DNA from: a virus
Taxonomy: Duplodnaviria > Caudoviricetes
Length of the DNA: 30,101 nucleotides
IMG/VR virus record: IMGVR_UViG_3300038318_000222
Location: 1-30,101 of that record
Direction: 5' to 3' (one strand)
This document shows, one piece after another, positions 7,876 through 29,672 of this stretch; position 1 is the first letter of the stretch, and every line of letters starts with the position of its first letter. The notes below the pieces were generated by a model that was not told the DNA's origin, searched no databases, and was given only the letters and a program-made list of their open reading frames with translations. The translations under genes and the position numbers were made by a program.

Positions 7876-8724
7876 ATGCGAAAACTAAAATTATGGAATA
7901 GAGATAAAACACAAATCATTAATTTAAATGCCCGCGAAAACTTAGCCACAAATTGGCAAGGATTAGGATTAGATTATAATCTTACTTTTGCAGAAACCAA
8001 CGAGGGAGGCTATTTAGAAAACAAAAAAATATCTAATAAAGACATAAAATGTACTATAATTTTCGGGCTAAACTCGAACGCATATCAAAATTATAATTCC
8101 TTTAACGACGTTATCAGGAATAGCAATAACAACTTAATATTAGAGTATAACGACGGGATTAAGACACTTTATCGTGACGTCAGTGTGAGGTCATTAACTA
8201 AAAATGAAAAAGATAATTTTAACTTACTAAAATGCGAACTAACATTAATGCCAATCGGTGGGTGGTATTTTGATGATGTAATAAGATTTATAGCACCAGG
8301 TGCAGAAACGGAGCCTGGATGGGATTTCTCGCGTATTAAAGGTGAAAAACATATTAAAATAGAAATTAACTTTTTTTTAGAGACAGCTGGCTTAATTTCC
8401 CTTCTTGATCTTGAAATCGGTTTAGAAACTTCAAGTGAAAAATTTCCGTTTATACGATTTTCGAGCGTGGATATAGGGCATGCGCTAAATGATACAATTG
8501 TAATAGATGGTATCAAAAAAGAAATGTACCTCCTGATTTGGGACATCCAATATGGGCGAACAGTAAAAAATATCTATGGGACACATGATTTTGATTATCA
8601 AAGTTTTATGGTGATACCAGATGTTGGATTACCTGATGGCTTACGGTTTTATGTTACTTTTATAGACCCGTCTGGAAACGAAAATACTGGGAATGTAAAA
8701 ATAACTATAAGGAGGTATGTATAA
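7876..8724 (+). CDS. Distal tail (Dit)-like baseplate protein
   Basis: Follows TMP; GLGLDY, LEY..LYRDVSVRSLTK, WY motifs. Confidence 0.7.
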   Translation: MRKLKLWNRDKTQIINLNARENLATNWQGLGLDYNLTFAETNEGGYLENKKISNKDIKCTIIFGLNSNAYQNYNSFNDVIRNSNNNLILEYNDGIKTLYRDVSVRSLTKNEKDNFNLLKCELTLMPIGGWYFDDVIRFIAPGAETEPGWDFSRIKGEKHIKIEINFFLETAGLISLLDLEIGLETSSEKFPFIRFSSVDIGHALNDTIVIDGIKKEMYLLIWDIQYGRTVKNIYGTHDFDYQSFMVIPDVGLPDGLRFYVTFIDPSGNENTGNVKITIRRYV

Positions 8725-10283
8725 TGTATGTATCTCTTTTTGATATTGATTTAAACCACATAACAAACTTATCAAACATAACTGGTACTCTAATAACTAA
8801 AGTTTATGATTTTGATGAGATTAAATTAAGTGGTAACGATACTATGGGAGCAAATATTAATGAGCTCAACCAAGCGAAATGGTTTAGAATAAATGAAGAT
8901 GATGGAGCAGAAATATATAGCGGGTTAGTTTATAAGGTAAAAAAAATAGGGAACATCGTTGAGATAATCGGGGAAGATTTTCGGGAAATATTAAGTAATG
9001 AAATAGTGCTTGATTTTGTAGTAAGTACACCCCCAACATCTGTTTTTAAATTATTTGATCTCATATCAAATTATTTTATAAATACCGCTGATATTACACT
9101 AAATAAAATACCCCTTGAATTTATTAATTATGGTGACTCTGCAAATATAACAAATTTATTTGGCGACCCATCGGGGAACATTATTGCCACGAATGCCTAT
9201 ACGTACTTATTACCGTATATTAAATACTTTGAATATATGTTACACTCTCGTTTTGATTGGGGAGCAAAAAAAATTATATTTGGATTTACTAAAACTAGAA
9301 ATTATCACAGTATCAAATTAAGAGATTTTGAACATAAGTTATCTAGTAATGAACCAAATGTAAACAAGGCAATCGCAATTTTAAAATTTGCCGAATTCGG
9401 TTACGAGTGGGTAAAACAAGAATATGGTTATGCGTGGGAAGATGTTATGCCGTTAACCACACAATATTCTGCAATACTGCCAAGCGGCGACGACACAAAT
9501 AGGTGGGTAAAAACAGGAAATACTCAATACATTTATAAATGGGTGCTGCAAGAAATTTATTATGATACAATTCCGCCTATAAAAAACACTTGTCCTACTG
9601 GGTATGTTAAGGTTGCTAATCCAGATTTAACCTTTTCATGTGTTAGCACTACCGCCGAATGGCGTAATGTTACGCCGGAACAATATGTGTGGTCAGTAAC
9701 AAAACCAAATGCAGATGATGGGTATAGATGGGTACAGGAGGGCGACTCAAACATCATCTTCGAATGGAAACTTCAACAACTGGTCGATAAATGGGTAAAT
9801 GTCGAGCCGAAAGAAACGCAGTTGTCTCCAACACAACCCGAAGAAAGTGATCCGAATTTTCAATGGGTCATGACGGGTGAAACACAAGCTCCACTAGGGG
9901 CAACAAGATACTATTACCTTACTAATGACAATCAAATCGTAGAATCGGACCAATACGGCAATATCCCTAACCGTTATTACCCTGTAAAAACAAAAATATT
10001 TATTGAAGATTATTTAGCGCACGCCCAACAACAAGCAGTGTACGAACTAGCGAATAATAGATATGTTGACTCAATTATGATTGACGCAAATAGCCCTTTA
10101 AACCCGATCGATTTATCAAAAGTCGGGTTGTTTGATTTAATTGAGATTTACGATACAGATTATCAAAAAACATTACCTGTATCTGAAAAACATTTGAAAA
10201 TTAGCGAGAAAGGAATTGAATTTAAATTAAAGCTAGGATTTAAAAAAGAAAGGTTAACTGAAATAATAAGGTACACGACATGA
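8724..10283 (+). CDS. Baseplate hub/tail tip (Tal-like) protein with inserted Trp-rich repeats
   Basis: Follows Dit; C-terminal VGLFDLIEIYD...LKLGF hub motif; three internal W-rich repeats. Confidence 0.65.
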   Translation: MYVSLFDIDLNHITNLSNITGTLITKVYDFDEIKLSGNDTMGANINELNQAKWFRINEDDGAEIYSGLVYKVKKIGNIVEIIGEDFREILSNEIVLDFVVSTPPTSVFKLFDLISNYFINTADITLNKIPLEFINYGDSANITNLFGDPSGNIIATNAYTYLLPYIKYFEYMLHSRFDWGAKKIIFGFTKTRNYHSIKLRDFEHKLSSNEPNVNKAIAILKFAEFGYEWVKQEYGYAWEDVMPLTTQYSAILPSGDDTNRWVKTGNTQYIYKWVLQEIYYDTIPPIKNTCPTGYVKVANPDLTFSCVSTTAEWRNVTPEQYVWSVTKPNADDGYRWVQEGDSNIIFEWKLQQLVDKWVNVEPKETQLSPTQPEESDPNFQWVMTGETQAPLGATRYYYLTNDNQIVESDQYGNIPNRYYPVKTKIFIEDYLAHAQQQAVYELANNRYVDSIMIDANSPLNPIDLSKVGLFDLIEIYDTDYQKTLPVSEKHLKISEKGIEFKLKLGFKKERLTEIIRYTT

Positions 10284-11128
10284 GGAAAATAATAAGTTAT
10301 GTAAATGATATTTTAATAGCTGGAGTTGGAGCGTTTGCAACTTTACGGTATTTTTTATTCGAGCGTGGCACAATCGATATAATCACAAAGGTGTGTTTAG
10401 CATTAATCGCTATAGCTGGAGTCGGCAAGGTTTATCTAGGTTGGAAATTACCAATCATAGATAATTTTAAATTTATCCCTAAAACAAAACCTGAAAAATA
10501 TATGAATATCACGCTTGATGATGAGTTTAAGGATTTACAAATTTTAAAAGGAGGAAAAAACAAAATGAAAAATTTATGGAAAACTTTAATAGGAATGATT
10601 AGGGCGAATAAATTTACTTTAACAGGTAACTTTTCGATAATTGCTTTATATGCAATTTTACTTGATGAATTGTTTGTTAAATTTGGGTATACGTTTATAA
10701 ATCAACCTAACGAGTTCTATATTAGAGGAGGTGTTTATACTTTAGGTTTTATATTTGCATTAATTGCTACTAACGGTTTTGGATGGGAGCGTATCGAAAA
10801 ATGGATCGCTCGTGTTAACGAAAAGAAAATTAAGAAAGCGTTAGAGGTATTAGCTGAACTGTCTATTGAATATAAGCCCGATGTAGTCGGTGAAAAATTA
10901 ACTGAAGCTAATATTTTATTAGAGAAAATTCAACCGTTTATCCAAGAAAAATTATATCAAGAGATTAAAAATAAGCTTGATGAAATTAATACAAGACTAA
11001 AAAAATATAACGCTAATAAGTTATTGCAGCAAGAAAAAGAACGACAAGAATTGCTGAAACTAGCCCAACAAGAATTAAATCAGCACCACACACCAACGTC
11101 GCCTAGTAATCGAGGATTAATGCGATGA
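10280..11128 (+). CDS. Membrane protein at lysis locus (about 4 hydrophobic segments plus coiled-coil tail)
   Basis: Hydrophobic stretches ILIAGVGAFA, VCLALIAIAGVG, FSIIALYAILL, GVYTLGFIFALIA; strong internal RBS/ATG at 10565. Confidence 0.6.
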   Translation: MRKIISYVNDILIAGVGAFATLRYFLFERGTIDIITKVCLALIAIAGVGKVYLGWKLPIIDNFKFIPKTKPEKYMNITLDDEFKDLQILKGGKNKMKNLWKTLIGMIRANKFTLTGNFSIIALYAILLDELFVKFGYTFINQPNEFYIRGGVYTLGFIFALIATNGFGWERIEKWIARVNEKKIKKALEVLAELSIEYKPDVVGEKLTEANILLEKIQPFIQEKLYQEIKNKLDEINTRLKKYNANKLLQQEKERQELLKLAQQELNQHHTPTSPSNRGLMR

Positions 11129-11364
11129 TGGAATGGGTTAACGAAAATTGGCTATACGTTGTTATAGCGGGAGGGGCAATAGTCGGATTTGAAACGGTAC
11201 GATTGATATTTAAAAAAGTAATGAAAAAATTTAATAAACGGTATCTTGTGCCAGTGTGGCATAAGATGAAAAAATTAAAAAACATAAACACGTTAATAAT
11301 CCTAATGGTAATAATCATTTTAGGATTAATAACATGGAATATTTATTATATGTTTTTTAGATAA
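11125..11364 (+). CDS. Small two-TM membrane protein, holin-like
   Basis: 79 aa, WLYVVIAGGAIVGF and TLIILMVIIILGLITW separated by a basic loop; last gene of late operon. Confidence 0.55.
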   Translation: MMEWVNENWLYVVIAGGAIVGFETVRLIFKKVMKKFNKRYLVPVWHKMKKLKNINTLIILMVIIILGLITWNIYYMFFR

Positions 11365-11366
11365 TT

Positions 11367-11399
11367 AAAAGGGCTGATTAATTTCAGCCCTATTTTTTT
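11367..11399. terminator. Bidirectional intrinsic terminator between late operon and minus-strand operon
   Basis: AGGGCTGA-TTAATT-TCAGCCCT stem flanked by A-run and T-run. Confidence 0.8.
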
Positions 11400-11854
11400 A
11401 TTCCATATTTATTAAAGTAATCTTCGAAAGGTATTCCCAACCCATTAGCAATCGCTTTGTGGGTTGTAATTTGGACGTTATCAAATGCGCTATCCCGCTT
11501 GACTATCCTGTATAAAACAGTACGGTCAATTTTAGCATTTTTTGCTATTTGATACAATGTTATACTATTCTCATCAGCTATTTTTTCAAGCCAATGATAG
11601 TTTACATAATATTTATCATTTACTTTTTTTAGATTAACCCTAAATTGATTAGGGTTACCCGCAATATATATCTTAGCCCAATAACCTGTTGGTGTTTGGA
11701 CTATTTCATATGTAACTGTTGCTTGATAGTTATCTTTTTGTTTTTTTAACAATTTGGGCATATCAAACAAAACCGCATTAGCTAAATTATCACTTGTTAA
11801 TTCTTTACTGTTAAGGCTTAGGAGCCTTTTTTTTACTTCGTTATCTTTTACCAT
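11390..11854 (-). CDS. Protein with C-terminal XRE-type HTH (candidate Aca-like regulator)
   Basis: ITLYQIAKNAKIDRTVLYRI...KAIANGLGI; last gene of operon containing acrIII-1. Confidence 0.7.
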   Translation of the reverse strand: MVKDNEVKKRLLSLNSKELTSDNLANAVLFDMPKLLKKQKDNYQATVTYEIVQTPTGYWAKIYIAGNPNQFRVNLKKVNDKYYVNYHWLEKIADENSITLYQIAKNAKIDRTVLYRIVKRDSAFDNVQITTHKAIANGLGIPFEDYFNKYGIKK

Positions 11855-11857
11855 CTT

Positions 11858-12241
11858 TTACCACTCTTCCTCCTCTTCTCTTTTTTGGTTACAATCGTAA
11901 CATCTGATATCTGCTACATCATTTATTGCTCCGCAATAGGTGCATTGATATTCTGTGTCCTCATCAATTTCTACAACACAGATATCTTCTATTTTACAAA
12001 GTATGTCCATAGCAGTTGTCATGGGGTCTTCATCAAGGCTTACTTCTCCCCCGTATAATTTGATAATATCTTTGGCATAATCGACCATCGAAATATCATC
12101 GATGTCAAAAATATTCATGTTCCAATATTCTTCGTCTGTGAATTTGTAACATAGCCAATCGTATTCTTTGACCCAAGGTGCTATATAATAAAGCACCTCA
12201 AGTTCGTTCTTTTTTAGATATTGTGGGTTTAATTTGAACAT
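11858..12241 (-). CDS. Highly acidic hypothetical protein with C-terminal zinc ribbon
   Basis: D/E-rich; CTYC...CYDC; ends EEEEW. Confidence 0.7.
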   Translation of the reverse strand: MFKLNPQYLKKNELEVLYYIAPWVKEYDWLCYKFTDEEYWNMNIFDIDDISMVDYAKDIIKLYGGEVSLDEDPMTTAMDILCKIEDICVVEIDEDTEYQCTYCGAINDVADIRCYDCNQKREEEEEW

Positions 12242-12765
12242 TTTTTATTCCTCCCTTTATTTTTTTTATAAAATTTTGGGTAATCTCGACAAATATTATC
12301 GAACATTATCTTTCTTAGAAATTGATAAGACGTGTTGTCAACTTCTTCAGTTATTGCATAAATCTTTGCGCCTACAGGAAAGACAACATAATCAACGTGT
12401 CGAAAATCAATTATTTTATACGTCTTGAATACTTCTTCCCCTTTCATTTCTTTTTTTAGTACAGCGATTATATCGCCGATATGAGCAATATATGTTGCTT
12501 TTCTTGCCATATACCCTTGTTCAAGGGAATATTTTTTATTTCCGCTTGCTGTGACGATTAATTTTGCTTCGTATTCTGCTTCGTTTTCGTCCTTTGTACC
12601 ATCTAGATTTAAAGTATAAAATCCTCTATACCTAGAATATTTCTCTGTGAACGAAACGTGCATTCCGCCTTTGTAAAATTCGGCTCCACACTCAAATTTA
12701 GGAAAATCATTATTTTCCAATTCCTTAAATGTTTGCAGAACCCATTCATTTCTGTTCATATTCAT
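12229..12765 (-). CDS. Hypothetical protein (anti-defence candidate)
   Basis: 178 aa ORF with AAGGAGG RBS inside the operon. Confidence 0.7.
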   Translation of the reverse strand: MNMNRNEWVLQTFKELENNDFPKFECGAEFYKGGMHVSFTEKYSRYRGFYTLNLDGTKDENEAEYEAKLIVTASGNKKYSLEQGYMARKATYIAHIGDIIAVLKKEMKGEEVFKTYKIIDFRHVDYVVFPVGAKIYAITEEVDNTSYQFLRKIMFDNICRDYPKFYKKNKGRNKKCSN

Positions 12766-12781
12766 TCCTCCTTTTTATTTT

Positions 12782-12835
12782 GTTACAGACTAGCCAAAAG
12801 GCTAGTTTCGACCATCAAGGTCTCGTCACTGTAAC
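12782..12835 (-). ncRNA. Type I hammerhead ribozyme fold, variant core (G instead of C at position 3)
   Basis: Minus strand GUUACA-GUGACGA-GACC(UUGAU)GGUC-GAAA-CUAGCC(UUUU)GGCUAG-UC^UGUAAC; three perfect stems; predicted cut between 12788 and 12787. Confidence 0.75.
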
Positions 12836-13141
12836 TTTAGCGAATTTAAATTCAAACCCGTCTGGTAGAGTAGTGCTACCTTCTGGGAGTCTACCACCAG
12901 TTAATTGGGCGACTATTAATATATCGTTATTAGTTAATGATATATTAATACGATTTGAGTCAATGTAAAATCCTAGTTCATTACTTAATACATTAGCAGT
13001 ATCAGTATGTCCTATGGAATTTATAAAAGTCCCTGATAACATTTCTTTTACTTCTCCCACTTTAAGCGGGGTTATAGTCAAGTTATTTTCTTGACTTAAA
13101 TTTAACATTTGTAATGAAAATGCATTTGATAAATAAATCAT
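12815..13141 (-). CDS. acrIII-1: AcrIII-1 / DUF1874 (STIV B116/YddF-like) cA4 ring nuclease
   Basis: 108 aa; YLSNAFS, SIGH(45), NR(64), GGR(84)LPE(87)G match the family catalytic H/R/R/E pattern and spacing. Confidence 0.88.
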   Translation of the reverse strand: MIYLSNAFSLQMLNLSQENNLTITPLKVGEVKEMLSGTFINSIGHTDTANVLSNELGFYIDSNRINISLTNNDILIVAQLTGGRLPEGSTTLPDGFEFKFAKVTVTRP

Positions 13142-13151
13142 ATTATCCTCC

Positions 13152-13358
13152 TTAAATTTCGCAATTTAGTAAGTCAATGGGTGTTTTATGCCCGTATTTT
13201 CCTGTTGGTACAAGTTCCCCATCCTCGTTGAGGTCGAAATATTCAACCTCATACCATCCGTGAAAACTATCGTAATCACTTATTAACTCAATCACACCGT
13301 TAGGTGTAGTGATTACTGTACCTTTCTTTAAATCGTACATTTTCTTTTTAATTTCCAT
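13152..13358 (-). CDS. Small acidic hypothetical protein
   Basis: 68 aa, GGAGG RBS, inside operon. Confidence 0.7.
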   Translation of the reverse strand: MEIKKKMYDLKKGTVITTPNGVIELISDYDSFHGWYEVEYFDLNEDGELVPTGKYGHKTPIDLLNCEI

Positions 13359-13384
13359 TTTATATCCTCCATTTTTTTATTATT

Positions 13385-13405
13385 AGGCGGTTTAAGGCAC
13401 CGCCT
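13385..13405 (-). other. GC-rich intergenic hairpin within operon
   Basis: AGGCGGU-GCCUUAA-ACCGCCU; no U-tract in the operon direction. Confidence 0.6.
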
Positions 13406-13413
13406 GAAACCTA

Positions 13414-13662
13414 TTAGTAAATTTCTATGCTGTAATACCCATAGTCGCCAAAATCTACTGTGACATCATCATTAATTGTTGCTTTCACGCCATACCATCT
13501 TAAGACTGCAACTGGTTGTTCTAAATTGTTTGCTTCAAAAATTAAGATACTTTCTTGTGTATAACGCGCACCTTTTATAGCTCTTTCGATTGCTTCTTCT
13601 AGCGTTCCTTTAATTGATTGGTTTCCTGCTCCCGTTTGGTAATCAATGAAATATTTTTTCAT
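13414..13662 (-). CDS. Small hypothetical phage protein
   Basis: 82 aa, AAGGAGG RBS overlapping hammerhead pseudoknot strand. Confidence 0.75.
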   Translation of the reverse strand: MKKYFIDYQTGAGNQSIKGTLEEAIERAIKGARYTQESILIFEANNLEQPVAVLRWYGVKATINDDVTVDFGDYGYYSIEIY

Positions 13663-13674
13663 TATTTATCCTCC

Positions 13675-13737
13675 TTAGCCTATCATCGTCAGTAGTGGGC
13701 GGCTAACCCTCACTAGACCGCTTTAAGCGGTTTCGAT
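13675..13737 (-). ncRNA. Type II hammerhead ribozyme with pseudoknot
   Basis: Minus strand AUC-GAAA-CCGC(UUAAA)GCGG-UC^UAGUG(AGGGUUAGCCGCC)CACUA-CUGACGA-U-GAU-A-GGCUAA; canonical core; loop I UUAGCC pairs with 3' GGCUAA; predicted cut between 13716 and 13715. Confidence 0.9.
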
Positions 13738-14144
13738 TATAATTTAAAGCTTAAATTCTCGTCTTGTTGTTCTTTAGCAACTTGTAATAAGTCGTCAAAA
13801 GTATTTTCTTTTTCAAAGCTGTAATCGTCAAAGTTTGAGGTAAATGTATAAGTCTTAAAGTACTTGCGGTTTAACTTGACAAGATATGCGTCTATACTCT
13901 CGTTGTAGTTGTAACATCTTCTTACTTGCCAATCTTTTAAATAAACGGCTTTATTGTTGTCTACTAATAATACTAGGTTGTTCTTAATTGTTTTGATATT
14001 ATTAGTCACAATGATTATTTCATCGTCGTTTAACACTCTTTTAAATTCATAATACTTATTCGTAATTTTTTTCCAATTGTCTTTCCCAAAAAAGAAGTCT
14101 TTGTCTTTGTTGCTTTGATTTTTAATAAATTCTGAATAACTCAT
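13737..14144 (-). CDS. Hypothetical protein, first gene of minus-strand operon
   Basis: 135 aa, AAGGAG RBS, downstream of near-consensus promoter. Confidence 0.8.
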   Translation of the reverse strand: MSYSEFIKNQSNKDKDFFFGKDNWKKITNKYYEFKRVLNDDEIIIVTNNIKTIKNNLVLLVDNNKAVYLKDWQVRRCYNYNESIDAYLVKLNRKYFKTYTFTSNFDDYSFEKENTFDDLLQVAKEQQDENLSFKL

Positions 14145-14186
14145 TTTTTAATCTCCTTTATTTTTACTCTTTATCTCTCTACCTTT

Positions 14187-14215
14187 ATTATATAACAATA
14201 GTAACCTGATGTCAC
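14187..14215 (-). promoter_or_regulatory. Sigma70/SigA promoter of anti-defence operon with overlapping imperfect palindrome
   Basis: GTGACA-17 nt-TATAAT on minus strand; GTAAC-N5-GTCAC at 14201-14215. Confidence 0.75.
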
Positions 14216-14779: not shown

Positions 14780-14801
14780 TTTTGTATCAATTTTGTATCA
14801 A
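14780..14801 (+). repeat. Integrase arm-type sites, left pair
   Basis: TTTTGTATCAA twice in tandem. Confidence 0.75.
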
Positions 14802-14928
14802 AACTATTTAATTTTATGTTATACTGTTTAATATTAGATAATAACAGACAAAAGAAATAATAATTAAATTATCTAATTATATCTAATTAATTAATACCAT
14901 TTAATACTAAATAAGAAAGGATAATATT

Positions 14929-14994
14929 ATGAAAAAGATAGTAATTGCAGGAGGTTGTTTTTGGGGAGTTGAAACACATTTTATGAAATTATAG
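14929..14994 (+). pseudogene. msrA: 5' fragment (21 codons) of peptide methionine sulfoxide reductase in attP
   Basis: MKKIVIAGGCFWGVETHFMKL* contains the MsrA GCFWG active-site motif; GAAAGGA RBS upstream. Confidence 0.85.
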
Positions 14995-15040
14995 TGTAAT
15001 TATCTAATTATATATTAATAGTTGTTTTAGCGATTTTTTA

Positions 15041-15062
15041 TTTTGTATCATTTTGTATCAAA
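15041..15062 (+). repeat. Integrase arm-type sites, right pair
   Basis: TTTTGTATCA twice in tandem, abutting the integrase stop. Confidence 0.75.
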
Positions 15063-16196
15063 CTAAAATATTTTTGGTAAACGAGCATTAATCTCTTGTA
15101 CTGTCTCATCTTTGTATTTGTCATGATGTTGGTAAGTATTAACGGTCATTTCAACTTTTGAATGCCCGAGTAAAGCCTGAACATCTTTAACTTCCATTCC
15201 ACGCATTAATGTAGCGAATGTGTGACGTATCCTATGAGATGTTATTGGTTCTATGTTTAATATTCTGCTATGTCGATATAAGAAGTGGTCAACAGCATTA
15301 GCTTGCAGGTATTCTCCATTATCATGACAAATTACTAAATTATTGTTAATATACTTTTCTTTATGTTTTCTTTTCATATCGTCTTGATATGTTTTGATTT
15401 CATAAAGCAGCTCTAATAGCATGTTGTGTATTACAATATATCTTATTGATGATTTTGTTTTTGGTGTAGTAATCTCACCGTAGCGATTCAATGATTTATT
15501 CACATGTATCGAATAGTATTCAAAATCAATATCATCCCATGTTAGAGCTAAAATTTCACCTCTACGCATTCCAGTAAAAAACGCAAACAACAAATAAAAT
15601 TTATATTTTATCATGCCTGGTATAGTAGCGACATGGTAAATAAATTCCTTAAAGTCATCTAATTCGATGACCTTTTTTTCTTTTAATCTCCCTTTTTTAA
15701 ATTTAAAATCTAGTTTTAACATCGGGTTTACTACAATCAAATCTTTTTTAAATGCCGATTCTAAAACTGTATTAATAATCCCTCTATGCCGGTCTACCAC
15801 ATGGTGACTTTTCTTTTTGCTGAGGTTAAAAAAATACTTATCTAAAAAAAGCGGCGTAATATCTTTTAATTTTATATTCCCAATATTTTTGTTGACTACT
15901 TTCCGATAAACTTCTTTAGCCTTTTTAGTTGTTGTCTTTAGGTCGCTTTCTATGATTTCAAAAACGACATCTCCATACTCCTTAAACGTCATATTGCTTT
16001 CATCTTTAACGAGCCCCAGGATACTCTGGGACTCTATTTTTTTTAGAAACCTTTCAGCTTCTTTTTTAGCATTTCTTTGGCTTGTAGCAGTTTCATTTTT
16101 TGCTCTAAATGACTTTACTTTTACTTTACCATTAACGCGGTATCTCACTTGAAAAGATATCGTGTTTTTCCCTTCTCTTTTCGTTATAAACGCCAT
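15063..16196 (-). CDS. int: Tyrosine integrase
   Basis: TGMRRGE, PKTK, HRIRH, LLGH, TYQH catalytic motifs; N-terminal arm-binding region. Confidence 0.95.
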   Translation of the reverse strand: MAFITKREGKNTISFQVRYRVNGKVKVKSFRAKNETATSQRNAKKEAERFLKKIESQSILGLVKDESNMTFKEYGDVVFEIIESDLKTTTKKAKEVYRKVVNKNIGNIKLKDITPLFLDKYFFNLSKKKSHHVVDRHRGIINTVLESAFKKDLIVVNPMLKLDFKFKKGRLKEKKVIELDDFKEFIYHVATIPGMIKYKFYLLFAFFTGMRRGEILALTWDDIDFEYYSIHVNKSLNRYGEITTPKTKSSIRYIVIHNMLLELLYEIKTYQDDMKRKHKEKYINNNLVICHDNGEYLQANAVDHFLYRHSRILNIEPITSHRIRHTFATLMRGMEVKDVQALLGHSKVEMTVNTYQHHDKYKDETVQEINARLPKIF

Positions 16197-28846: not shown

Positions 28847-29047
28847 ATGATAGAACAAAAAGAAACGAACAACTTTGTCTTAATATGTGATAACTGTGGT
28901 AAAGAAATAGAAGGCTTCGATTGTATCGATTCCGCTTGTGATTACATGGAAAGTGAAAGTTGGGGTTGTGAAGAAGGAACAAAATTAGATTTGACAGAAG
29001 GATTAATGGATATTTGTCCTAAGTGTATGGAGGTAGGCGATGAGTGA
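28847..29047 (+). CDS. Acidic zinc-finger protein
   Basis: CDNC...CPKC. Confidence 0.7.
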
Positions 29048-29672
29048 GCTTATAAAAGTATATCCATTTAATGTAGCGTTTGACATATTTTGTGATGAAG
29101 AACAGGCGCTCAATATCAATCCAAAAAAACTAATTGAAACCTTTTTAACACTTACAGAACGTGAAGAAACAGTTTTAAGATGGAGATACAAAGAACGATT
29201 AACACTCGAAAAAACAGGAAAACAAGTAGGTGTAACGACAGAAAGAATAAGACAAATACAAGCGAAAGCACTGAGAAAGTTAAGACATCCGTCAAGAACA
29301 AAGAATTTTAGTATAGTGCCTTACGAAGAATATTACGAATTATTTAAAAAACACGAAACACTCATTAGAGAATATGCGTTACTCGAAAGAGCCTATGAAG
29401 AAATTGCGAACCACAAAAATATTAATTGTAGTGTTGAAGAAGTGGCAGAACAGGCGGCTAAAATGGTATTAACATTGGAAGATTTAGAACTAAGTGTAAG
29501 GTCTTATAATTGCTTAAAGCGTAAAGGCATAAACACATTGAGAGATTTAACAGAAATATCTGAAGCAGAATTGATGAAGATACGAAACTTAGGGCGAAAA
29601 TCATATTTAGAGATAAAAAACGCAATGGTAAGATGGGGAGTTAACCCTAAAGGTGGGTTTACCAATGACTGA
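29040..29672 (+). CDS. Sigma70 region 4 - RNA polymerase alpha C-terminal domain fusion
   Basis: LTEREETVL...[23 protein letters not shown] (SigA region 4) and [21 protein letters not shown]...IRNLGRKS (RpoA CTD). Confidence 0.9.

Follow-up and report, generated by a model that had tools for sequence, protein, structure and literature searches.

Hammerhead ribozymes of prophages have been reported to flank individual genes or small gene groups whose identity is not constant, and the processing of prophage polycistronic RNA by these ribozymes was proposed and tested, including around ardA; three sets of tandem hammerheads were cleaved, with cleavage occurring in vitro and in E. coli (Perreault 2011, PMC3088659). 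In a 2019 review, a differing stability or translation of the processed RNA stands as an unresolved hypothesis, and the role of self-cleaving ribozymes in phages as an open question (PMC6765202). The locus considered in this work is a minus-strand block of seven open reading frames (ORFs) in a 30.1-kb temperate phage contig (Duplodnaviria; Caudoviricetes; IMG/VR record IMGVR_UViG_3300038318_000222, positions 1 to 30,101), the whole of which is referred to as the window. The block is a swappable accessory cassette, probably an operon, with swapping among relatives at its junctions, and it contains an AcrIII-1 family gene and two hammerhead folds, HH1 and HH2. The interpretation that we favor, and consider reasonably probable, is that of a variable operon with a likely anti-CRISPR that degrades cyclic tetra-adenylate (cA4), the transcript being likely cut once, by HH1, while HH2 is probably inactivated.

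Prophage tandem-hammerhead arrays, among them the ardA triple arrangement of Agrobacterium tumefaciens, share with the window a type II hammerhead with a pseudoknot between loop I and the 3′ tail, several folds between short genes, a variable cargo that includes an anti-defence gene, and a proposed mRNA processing (PMC3088659). The window displays the feature that defines those arrays, i.e. two hammerheads flanking short blocks of non-constant gene identity, one of them being probably dead. It differs from the arrays of Perreault in that the cargo is AcrIII-1, not ArdA, and in that the anti-defence gene has its coding end overlapped by one of the folds, which bears an uncompensated G at core position 3 (G3). 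The layout is one already described in prophages, and not a new regulatory system. Concerning the proposal, made in a first-pass annotation of the window, that self-cleavage could be a new regulatory layer of acr genes, no paper pairing hammerheads with acr genes was found in a literature search that reached few subscription papers, but the general idea has been in print since 2011 (PMC3088659) and the link to acrIII-1 is loose. No ribozyme link of AcrIII-1/DUF1874 was reported in the literature searched. DUF1874 may be among the ribozyme-associated genes listed in a 2015 paper.

Other described systems resemble parts of the locus. The AcrIII-1/DUF1874 ring nucleases SIRV1 gp29 and YddF (10.1101/778746) have in common with ORF4 the PF08960 family, the catalytic His, most cA4 contacts and the location in a mobile element. 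The operons of acr and aca genes with AcrIIA1-type autorepressors (PMC9410906; 10.1101/787200) have, like the window, a strong promoter, small genes and a helix-turn-helix (HTH) gene in the last position; in the related phage L090 the likeness extends to paired promoter palindromes, the operator candidate of the window being weak. In contrast to Aca proteins, ORF7 is a two-module protein of 154 amino acids (aa) with a C-terminal HTH, and it matched none of the named Aca families. The DUF1874 RNA motif (Weinberg et al. 2017, PMC5737381) is a structured element of consecutive intergenic regions, in cassette-like arrays, named for DUF1874 genes, while the elements of the window are hammerheads and a simple hairpin. 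The motif gave no Rfam match in the window or in 20 acrIII-1 loci, with filters that in large searches also missed true hammerheads. The features of the block, in the order of the proposed transcription, are as follows:

14187..14215, minus strand: sigma70-type promoter match, −35 at 14215-14210 and −10 at 14192-14187, 11 of 12 consensus bases
13737..14144, minus strand: ORF1, 135 aa, widespread family whose only match is an uncharacterised phage protein
13674..13738, minus strand: HH1, type II hammerhead, found by Rfam RF02276 (36.9 bits, gathering score 37, E 1.9e-5) and by structural descriptor
13414..13662, minus strand: ORF2, 82 aa, no Pfam, PHROG, NCBIfam or PDB match
13385..13405, minus strand: junction-2 GC hairpin, fold z −2.8, no ribozyme core and no U-tract
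13152..13358, minus strand: ORF3, 68 aa, with an 87% identical copy upstream of acrIII-1 in locus L084
12815..13141, minus strand: ORF4 (acrIII-1), 108 aa, AcrIII-1/DUF1874 ring-nuclease homologue, PF08960 E 2.9e-14
12782..12835, minus strand: HH2, type I hammerhead fold, fold z −3.7, Rfam 22.7 bits and E 0.61, also found by descriptor
12229..12759, minus strand: ORF5, 176 aa (178 from an upstream ATG), no library match
11858..12241, minus strand: ORF6, 127 aa, acidic, with a C-terminal four-cysteine zinc-ribbon-like motif
11390..11854, minus strand: ORF7, 154 aa, with an N-terminal module followed by a Cro/C1-type HTH at the C-terminal end
11370..11391, both strands: bidirectional intrinsic terminator that ends the operon, fold z −4.7

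The seven short minus-strand genes announced by the first-pass annotation are present at 14144-11390, with lengths of 135, 82, 68, 108, 176-178, 127 and 154 aa, in the interval that separates the last of the late genes, ending at 11364, from the integrase (15063). Its near-consensus promoter holds with regard to sequence, being the joint best of 35 matches in the region and having a similar promoter in locus L085, but 35 matches against 33.2 expected is a chance level, so support for the promoter is restricted to its position and its conservation in L085. An imperfect palindrome over the −35 box was seen by eye and was not reported by the repeat search. No minus-strand terminator was listed between the promoter (14187) and the terminator at 11370-11391.

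At the first junction, a hammerhead had been annotated from the letters alone, and the Rfam hammerhead search agreed with it: HH1 fits the type II consensus, core and pseudoknot included. It has three stems round the conserved core, with stem II open. The core (13692-13686) is intact, with the C3-G8 pair, G5, G12 and the NUH cleavage triplet all present, and a 6-bp pseudoknot joins loop I and the 3′ tail (13706-13701 with 13680-13675), ending at the Shine-Dalgarno (SD) sequence of ORF2. The Hammerhead_II match was obtained in a 1.6-kb search, while the Rfam search of the whole 30-kb window reported no ribozyme; since the shorter search found HH1, the miss is a filter effect. The structural descriptor, run over 30 kb on both strands, returned HH1 and HH2 and no other. 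The predicted cut, between 13716 and 13715, lies 53 nt ahead of the ORF2 start; the 102 genes that follow type II hammerheads have a median distance of 55 nt, start codons having been sought 25-200 nt after the cut. HH1 is very likely active.

The case of HH2 is different. The second fold of the first-pass annotation stands as to its type I topology, with three stems, an open stem I and covariation among alleles, but its Rfam score is weak, its core has G3 and it overlaps the coding end of acrIII-1 instead of being intergenic: the core is within the last acrIII-1 codons and the stop codon is in loop II. Core position 3 (12829) is a G that faces G8, with no 3-8 Watson-Crick pair, and the predicted fold pairs G3 with the cleavage-site C. 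Were cleavage possible, the cut would be between 12788 and 12787, leaving an unstructured leader of 28 nt. The C3G change alone abolishes hammerhead cleavage (PMC11167929), while the double change C3G/G8C rescues it partly (PMC11167929, PMC8495972). Viral contigs were searched with a type I pattern in which position 3 could be either C or G. The 135 loci obtained, out of about 200, contained 114 distinct matches, 112 of them folding, and position 3 was C in all 114 and G in none. The exact 16-base pattern of HH2 had no match in viral contigs. Because of this G3, against C in 114/114 natural matches, and because C3G abolishes cleavage, HH2 of the window is probably inactive. An assembly error as the origin of G3 was rejected: the identical allele is present in L085 and in run X4, from another study, which spans the site without a differing letter.

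Related alleles occur at the same place. In L084, whose AcrIII-1 is 93% identical, the core is intact, at the same position and with the same stem I, while stems II and III are different. In L090, an intact type I fold begins at the acrIII-1 stop. Two low-depth contigs of run X2 (depths 3.4 and 4.75) have further stem II/III variants after acrIII-1, and in one X2 contig the type I fold is joined straight to the ORF6 leader, ORF5 being skipped; core position 3 was not readable in two divergent X2 alleles. Stem II differs among five alleles, yet it pairs in every one, and the C/G change at core position 3 amounts to a conservative Leu/Val codon change in AcrIII-1. Upstream in L090, at 2016-2070, there is a type II scaffold that keeps stems and pseudoknot and has the catalytic core deleted.

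The exchange of genes at the junctions is shown by the relatives. L085 shares with the window the promoter region, the junction hairpin and ORF5-6, with other first genes and an acrIII-1 that is 65% identical. L090 occupies the same slot, next to a homologous membrane-protein gene (33% identical), and its cassette has in common with the window only acrIII-1 and the terminal HTH gene, the latter 41% identical to ORF7 over the HTH; its promoter has two clear palindromes, those of the window and L085 being imperfect only. In L085, L084 and the X2 contigs, the point where other genes are joined is either the hairpin or the position immediately behind the type I fold. The hairpin itself recurs at the cassette junctions of relatives, with two copies in L085, and in run X2 a variant sequence is joined at 13410, beside it. 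In two unrelated arrays, L018 and L122, acrIII-1 is surrounded by three and four type II hammerheads, respectively, and the cassettes of the two differ. In L084, at 2560-2760, the ORF3-acrIII-1-hammerhead unit directly follows genes of chromosomal type and has a promoter-like sequence of its own, in a context unlike that of the window phage.

Concerning the product of ORF4, the DUF1874 motifs read in the first-pass annotation correspond to the PF08960 match. The protein aligns with PDB entries 2J6B, 2X4I, 2J85 and 6SCF, and is 53% identical to a THSA-485A protein. In the alignment to 2X4I/6SCF, H45 equals the catalytic H47 of SIRV1 gp29, and N6, S9, T48, R64, Q79 and R84 equal the cA4 contacts N8, S11, T50, R66, Q81 and R85 (contact list from 10.1101/778746). 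All seven ORF4 residues are invariant in 68 homologues. The residues S49 and N13 of SIRV1 gp29 are D47 and Q11 in ORF4, invariant in its branch. It seems reasonable to interpret, from sequence conservation, that ORF4 is likely a cA4-degrading anti-CRISPR. No cas genes were present among the 36 window proteins scanned.

ORF7 has, as first annotated, an HTH, placed in its C-terminal half. Homologues match HTH_26 above the Pfam cut-off of 22 bits, but ORF7 itself reaches 19.6 bits (E 0.0011). Each half of ORF7 occurs alone, the HTH being found at 71-77 aa or on other N-termini (26 matches). No named Aca family appeared among its NCBIfam, Pfam and PDB matches, no dedicated Aca models being used. 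ORF7 is a candidate Aca-like repressor.

The specificity of the link between hammerheads and acrIII-1 was approached by the survey of DUF1874 neighborhoods suggested in the first-pass annotation. The set comprised 186 acrIII-1 loci: 3 came from a scan with a single query, 80 were the best among 97 viral loci and another 80 the best among 435 metagenomic ones, and the 23 genomic loci were all taken. This set, which leans towards kin of the query, gave 108 clusters at 85% protein identity, 79 of them with at least 1 kb on both sides. With the relaxed descriptor, a sense-strand hammerhead was found within 1 kb in five of the 108 clusters and an antisense one in none, L085 (G3) being left out of the count, and none appeared in the controls, which were 324 shuffles, 15 ORF1 clusters and 77 random clusters; the random-pattern control was used after a control based on SSB yielded one locus. 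The strict descriptor gave a hammerhead within 3 kb in five acrIII-1 clusters versus 0/77 random ones (Fisher p 0.077). No hammerhead was found in 103 of the 108 clusters, and two of the five positive ones are close kin of the window phage. Types I, II and III are represented near acrIII-1. At the Rfam gathering score, 20 acrIII-1 loci gave 3 hammerheads, others seen by the descriptor being missed. Compared to the viral background, with about 1300 and 200 stretches for two patterns (the first one type II) in 2.9 million contigs, the association with acrIII-1 is in excess, the comparison being one of different measures and with small controls.

In the reverse survey, 131 type II pattern loci gave 95 clusters, 82 of them folding as hammerheads, and acrIII-1 was present in three loci, equivalent to one L018-type array among the 82 (full flanks for 80 loci); it was in none of the fetched flanks of the 135 type I loci. 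Of 102 genes directly downstream of type II hammerheads, 13 had a Pfam match, including ArdA, RadC, DUF932 (2), Bro-N and AAA_5 (3). Hammerheads mark short-gene accessory arrays in general, acrIII-1 is one passenger of them, and its link to them is loose. As 89 of the 102 genes behind such ribozymes lack a Pfam match, hammerhead-punctuated arrays may mark anti-defence genes. In the viral arrays L410 and L413, nearly every short gene has a type II hammerhead, 8 and 9 in total, and L410 includes ardA; their genes, mostly without Pfam match, are anti-defence candidates.

Under the favored interpretation, a single transcript would run from 14187 to the terminator, and HH1 would cut it during transcription at 13716/13715, separating ORF1 from ORF2-7. 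The ORF2-7 piece would keep a 53-nt leader (5′ hairpin, pseudoknot and SD) identical whatever gene is upstream, and therefore HH1 would act, by analogy, as a natural insulator for shuffled cassettes. Ribozyme insulators are known in synthetic biology. The conserved junction elements would likely double as recombination handles, and ORF7 would likely repress the promoter as Aca proteins do. Live HH2 alleles would cut just after acrIII-1 and give ORF5-7 the unstructured 28-nt leader with a 5′-OH end, with probably a shorter life. RNase J1 degrades the 5′-OH RNA left by cleavage of the glmS ribozyme, and in B. subtilis processed RNA is made more stable by downstream hairpins (PMC11780869). By analogy with these two cases, live alleles would bring a faster decay of ORF5-7, which the G3 allele would avoid. 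The self-processing of a polycistronic mRNA into units, as proposed in the first-pass annotation, is thus retained in part: HH1 is very likely active, but two pieces are predicted and not several, and acrIII-1 would not be set apart, because the core is intact in HH1 alone.

Several observations weigh against the favored interpretation. HH1 has a two-base insertion before its short stem II, its isolated fold energy is unremarkable (z −0.29), and so is that of its post-cut leader (z +0.54), for which reasons the insulator role is one of analogy. The operator candidate of the window is weak. Dead copies exist in this phage group (G3 in the window, the core-deleted type II scaffold in L090), so cleavage at a given junction is dispensable. 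In a native archaeal infection, anti-CRISPR action of a DUF1874 protein was looked for and reported as absent (10.1101/2023.01.10.523387). Last, one of the seven genes, ORF4, has an anti-defence assignment and the other six have none: a counter-defence cassette is a reasonable reading, but the label of anti-defence operon comes from one gene and the layout, because ORF2, ORF3, ORF5 and ORF6 lack assignment.

It could also be that the ribozymes are a dedicated control of the anti-CRISPR, the type I hammerhead cutting only with ribosomes off acrIII-1 and thus coupling translation to the fate of the downstream mRNA. That the end of acrIII-1 directly bears a type I hammerhead in the window and L085, L084, L090 and two X2 contigs, with differing stems II/III and, in four of those alleles, an in-frame stop within loop II, is consistent with this, as is the strand bias of the five positive clusters against the random and ORF1 controls. 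However, the clusters without hammerhead, the Fisher p value, the kinship of two of the five and the flanks of the type I loci, devoid of acrIII-1, all argue the contrary; members of the subfamily that are not near acrIII-1 also have a loop II of similar U-rich sequence, and the ribozyme concerned is the one probably dead in the window. We regard this possibility as unlikely. The same doubtful standing is given to its extended form, in which translation-gated cleavage in the last acrIII-1 codons would set the life of the downstream counter-defence mRNA, C/G would be a natural on/off allele, and each cassette would have exactly one live cut (HH1 here, HH2 in L090).

A slightly less credible alternative is that the junction structures matter mainly as DNA, promoting cassette recombination, with cleavage as a tolerated and decaying side effect. 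Allele breakpoints do fall at or near junction elements, and ribozymes that are dead retain their stems, as seen for the G3 allele, present in two studies, and for the L090 scaffold with its deleted core. For the DUF1874 RNA motif, which occupies consecutive intergenic regions, a function resembling that of attC has been brought up (PMC5737381). Against it, type II scaffolds were non-canonical in 3 cases vs 151 canonical, in a set partly selected for canonical cores, the C3 of type I matches was constant, every hammerhead near acrIII-1 is on the sense strand, and the stems covary, lowering DNA identity. Least probable among these alternatives is that HH1 works as a decay timer, its 5′-OH end being degraded by a host 5′-3′ exonuclease to leave a short pulse of AcrIII-1 and other cargo. 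The fate of the glmS product and the Bacillota-phage type of the replication genes would fit, but the HH1 product starts with a hairpin at its first base, and downstream hairpins are stabilizing in B. subtilis. The locus puts ribozymes around a gene with a measurable activity (cA4 breakdown, escape from type III CRISPR) and, because of its natural live and dead alleles at the same junctions, it is a good test case for the processing, insulator and decay hypotheses.

Structured RNA had also been annotated at a third junction, and the GC hairpin there does fold, but it has no ribozyme core. A ribozyme or terminator nature of this hairpin was rejected, as it has no core, no U-tract and no Rfam match. 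The 5′ side of the hairpin (13397-13411, minus strand) and positions 2761-2774 of L090, i.e. the type I stem III loop and 3′ strand, agree at 13 of 14 bases, and the hairpin could thus be what remains of a hammerhead.

With regard to the remaining proteins of the block, ORF1, the first gene behind the promoter, belongs to a family widespread in mobile DNA (99 proteins at E<=0.001, itself included) and has a confident predicted structure (pLDDT 93.6). It gave no Pfam, NCBIfam or PDB sequence match and no Foldseek hit to PDB at E<=0.001, and its structural alignment with VIA-align reached a best Z of 2.2. No significant PDB match was obtained for ORF2, ORF3, ORF5 and ORF6. ORF5 has homologues, 30% identical, in L086/L087, and ORF6 matches weakly Zn_ribbon_3 (E 0.031).

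Protein library searches placed portal, prohead protease, capsid and distal-tail genes on the left side of the window, and integrase, repressor, Rha antirepressor and replication genes, the latter of Bacillota-phage type, on the right side. The capsid matches are only 22-28% identical. The late region (8724-11364) ends with two membrane-type genes. The 36 window proteins scanned gave no match to an endolysin family; the host could lack a cell wall, or the lysin could be divergent. Just downstream of the integrase there is a 21-codon 5′ fragment of msrA (14929-14994, PMSR, E 1.6e-4), flanked by repeated short motifs (14780-15063). This suggests an attP with arm sites adjoining the seven-gene block, and an attP at that point would imply integration into the host msrA, with replacement of its start. 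At 29040-29672, the window encodes a phage protein that combines sigma70 region 4 and the C-terminal domain of RNA polymerase alpha, matched with E 1.9e-15 and 8e-24.

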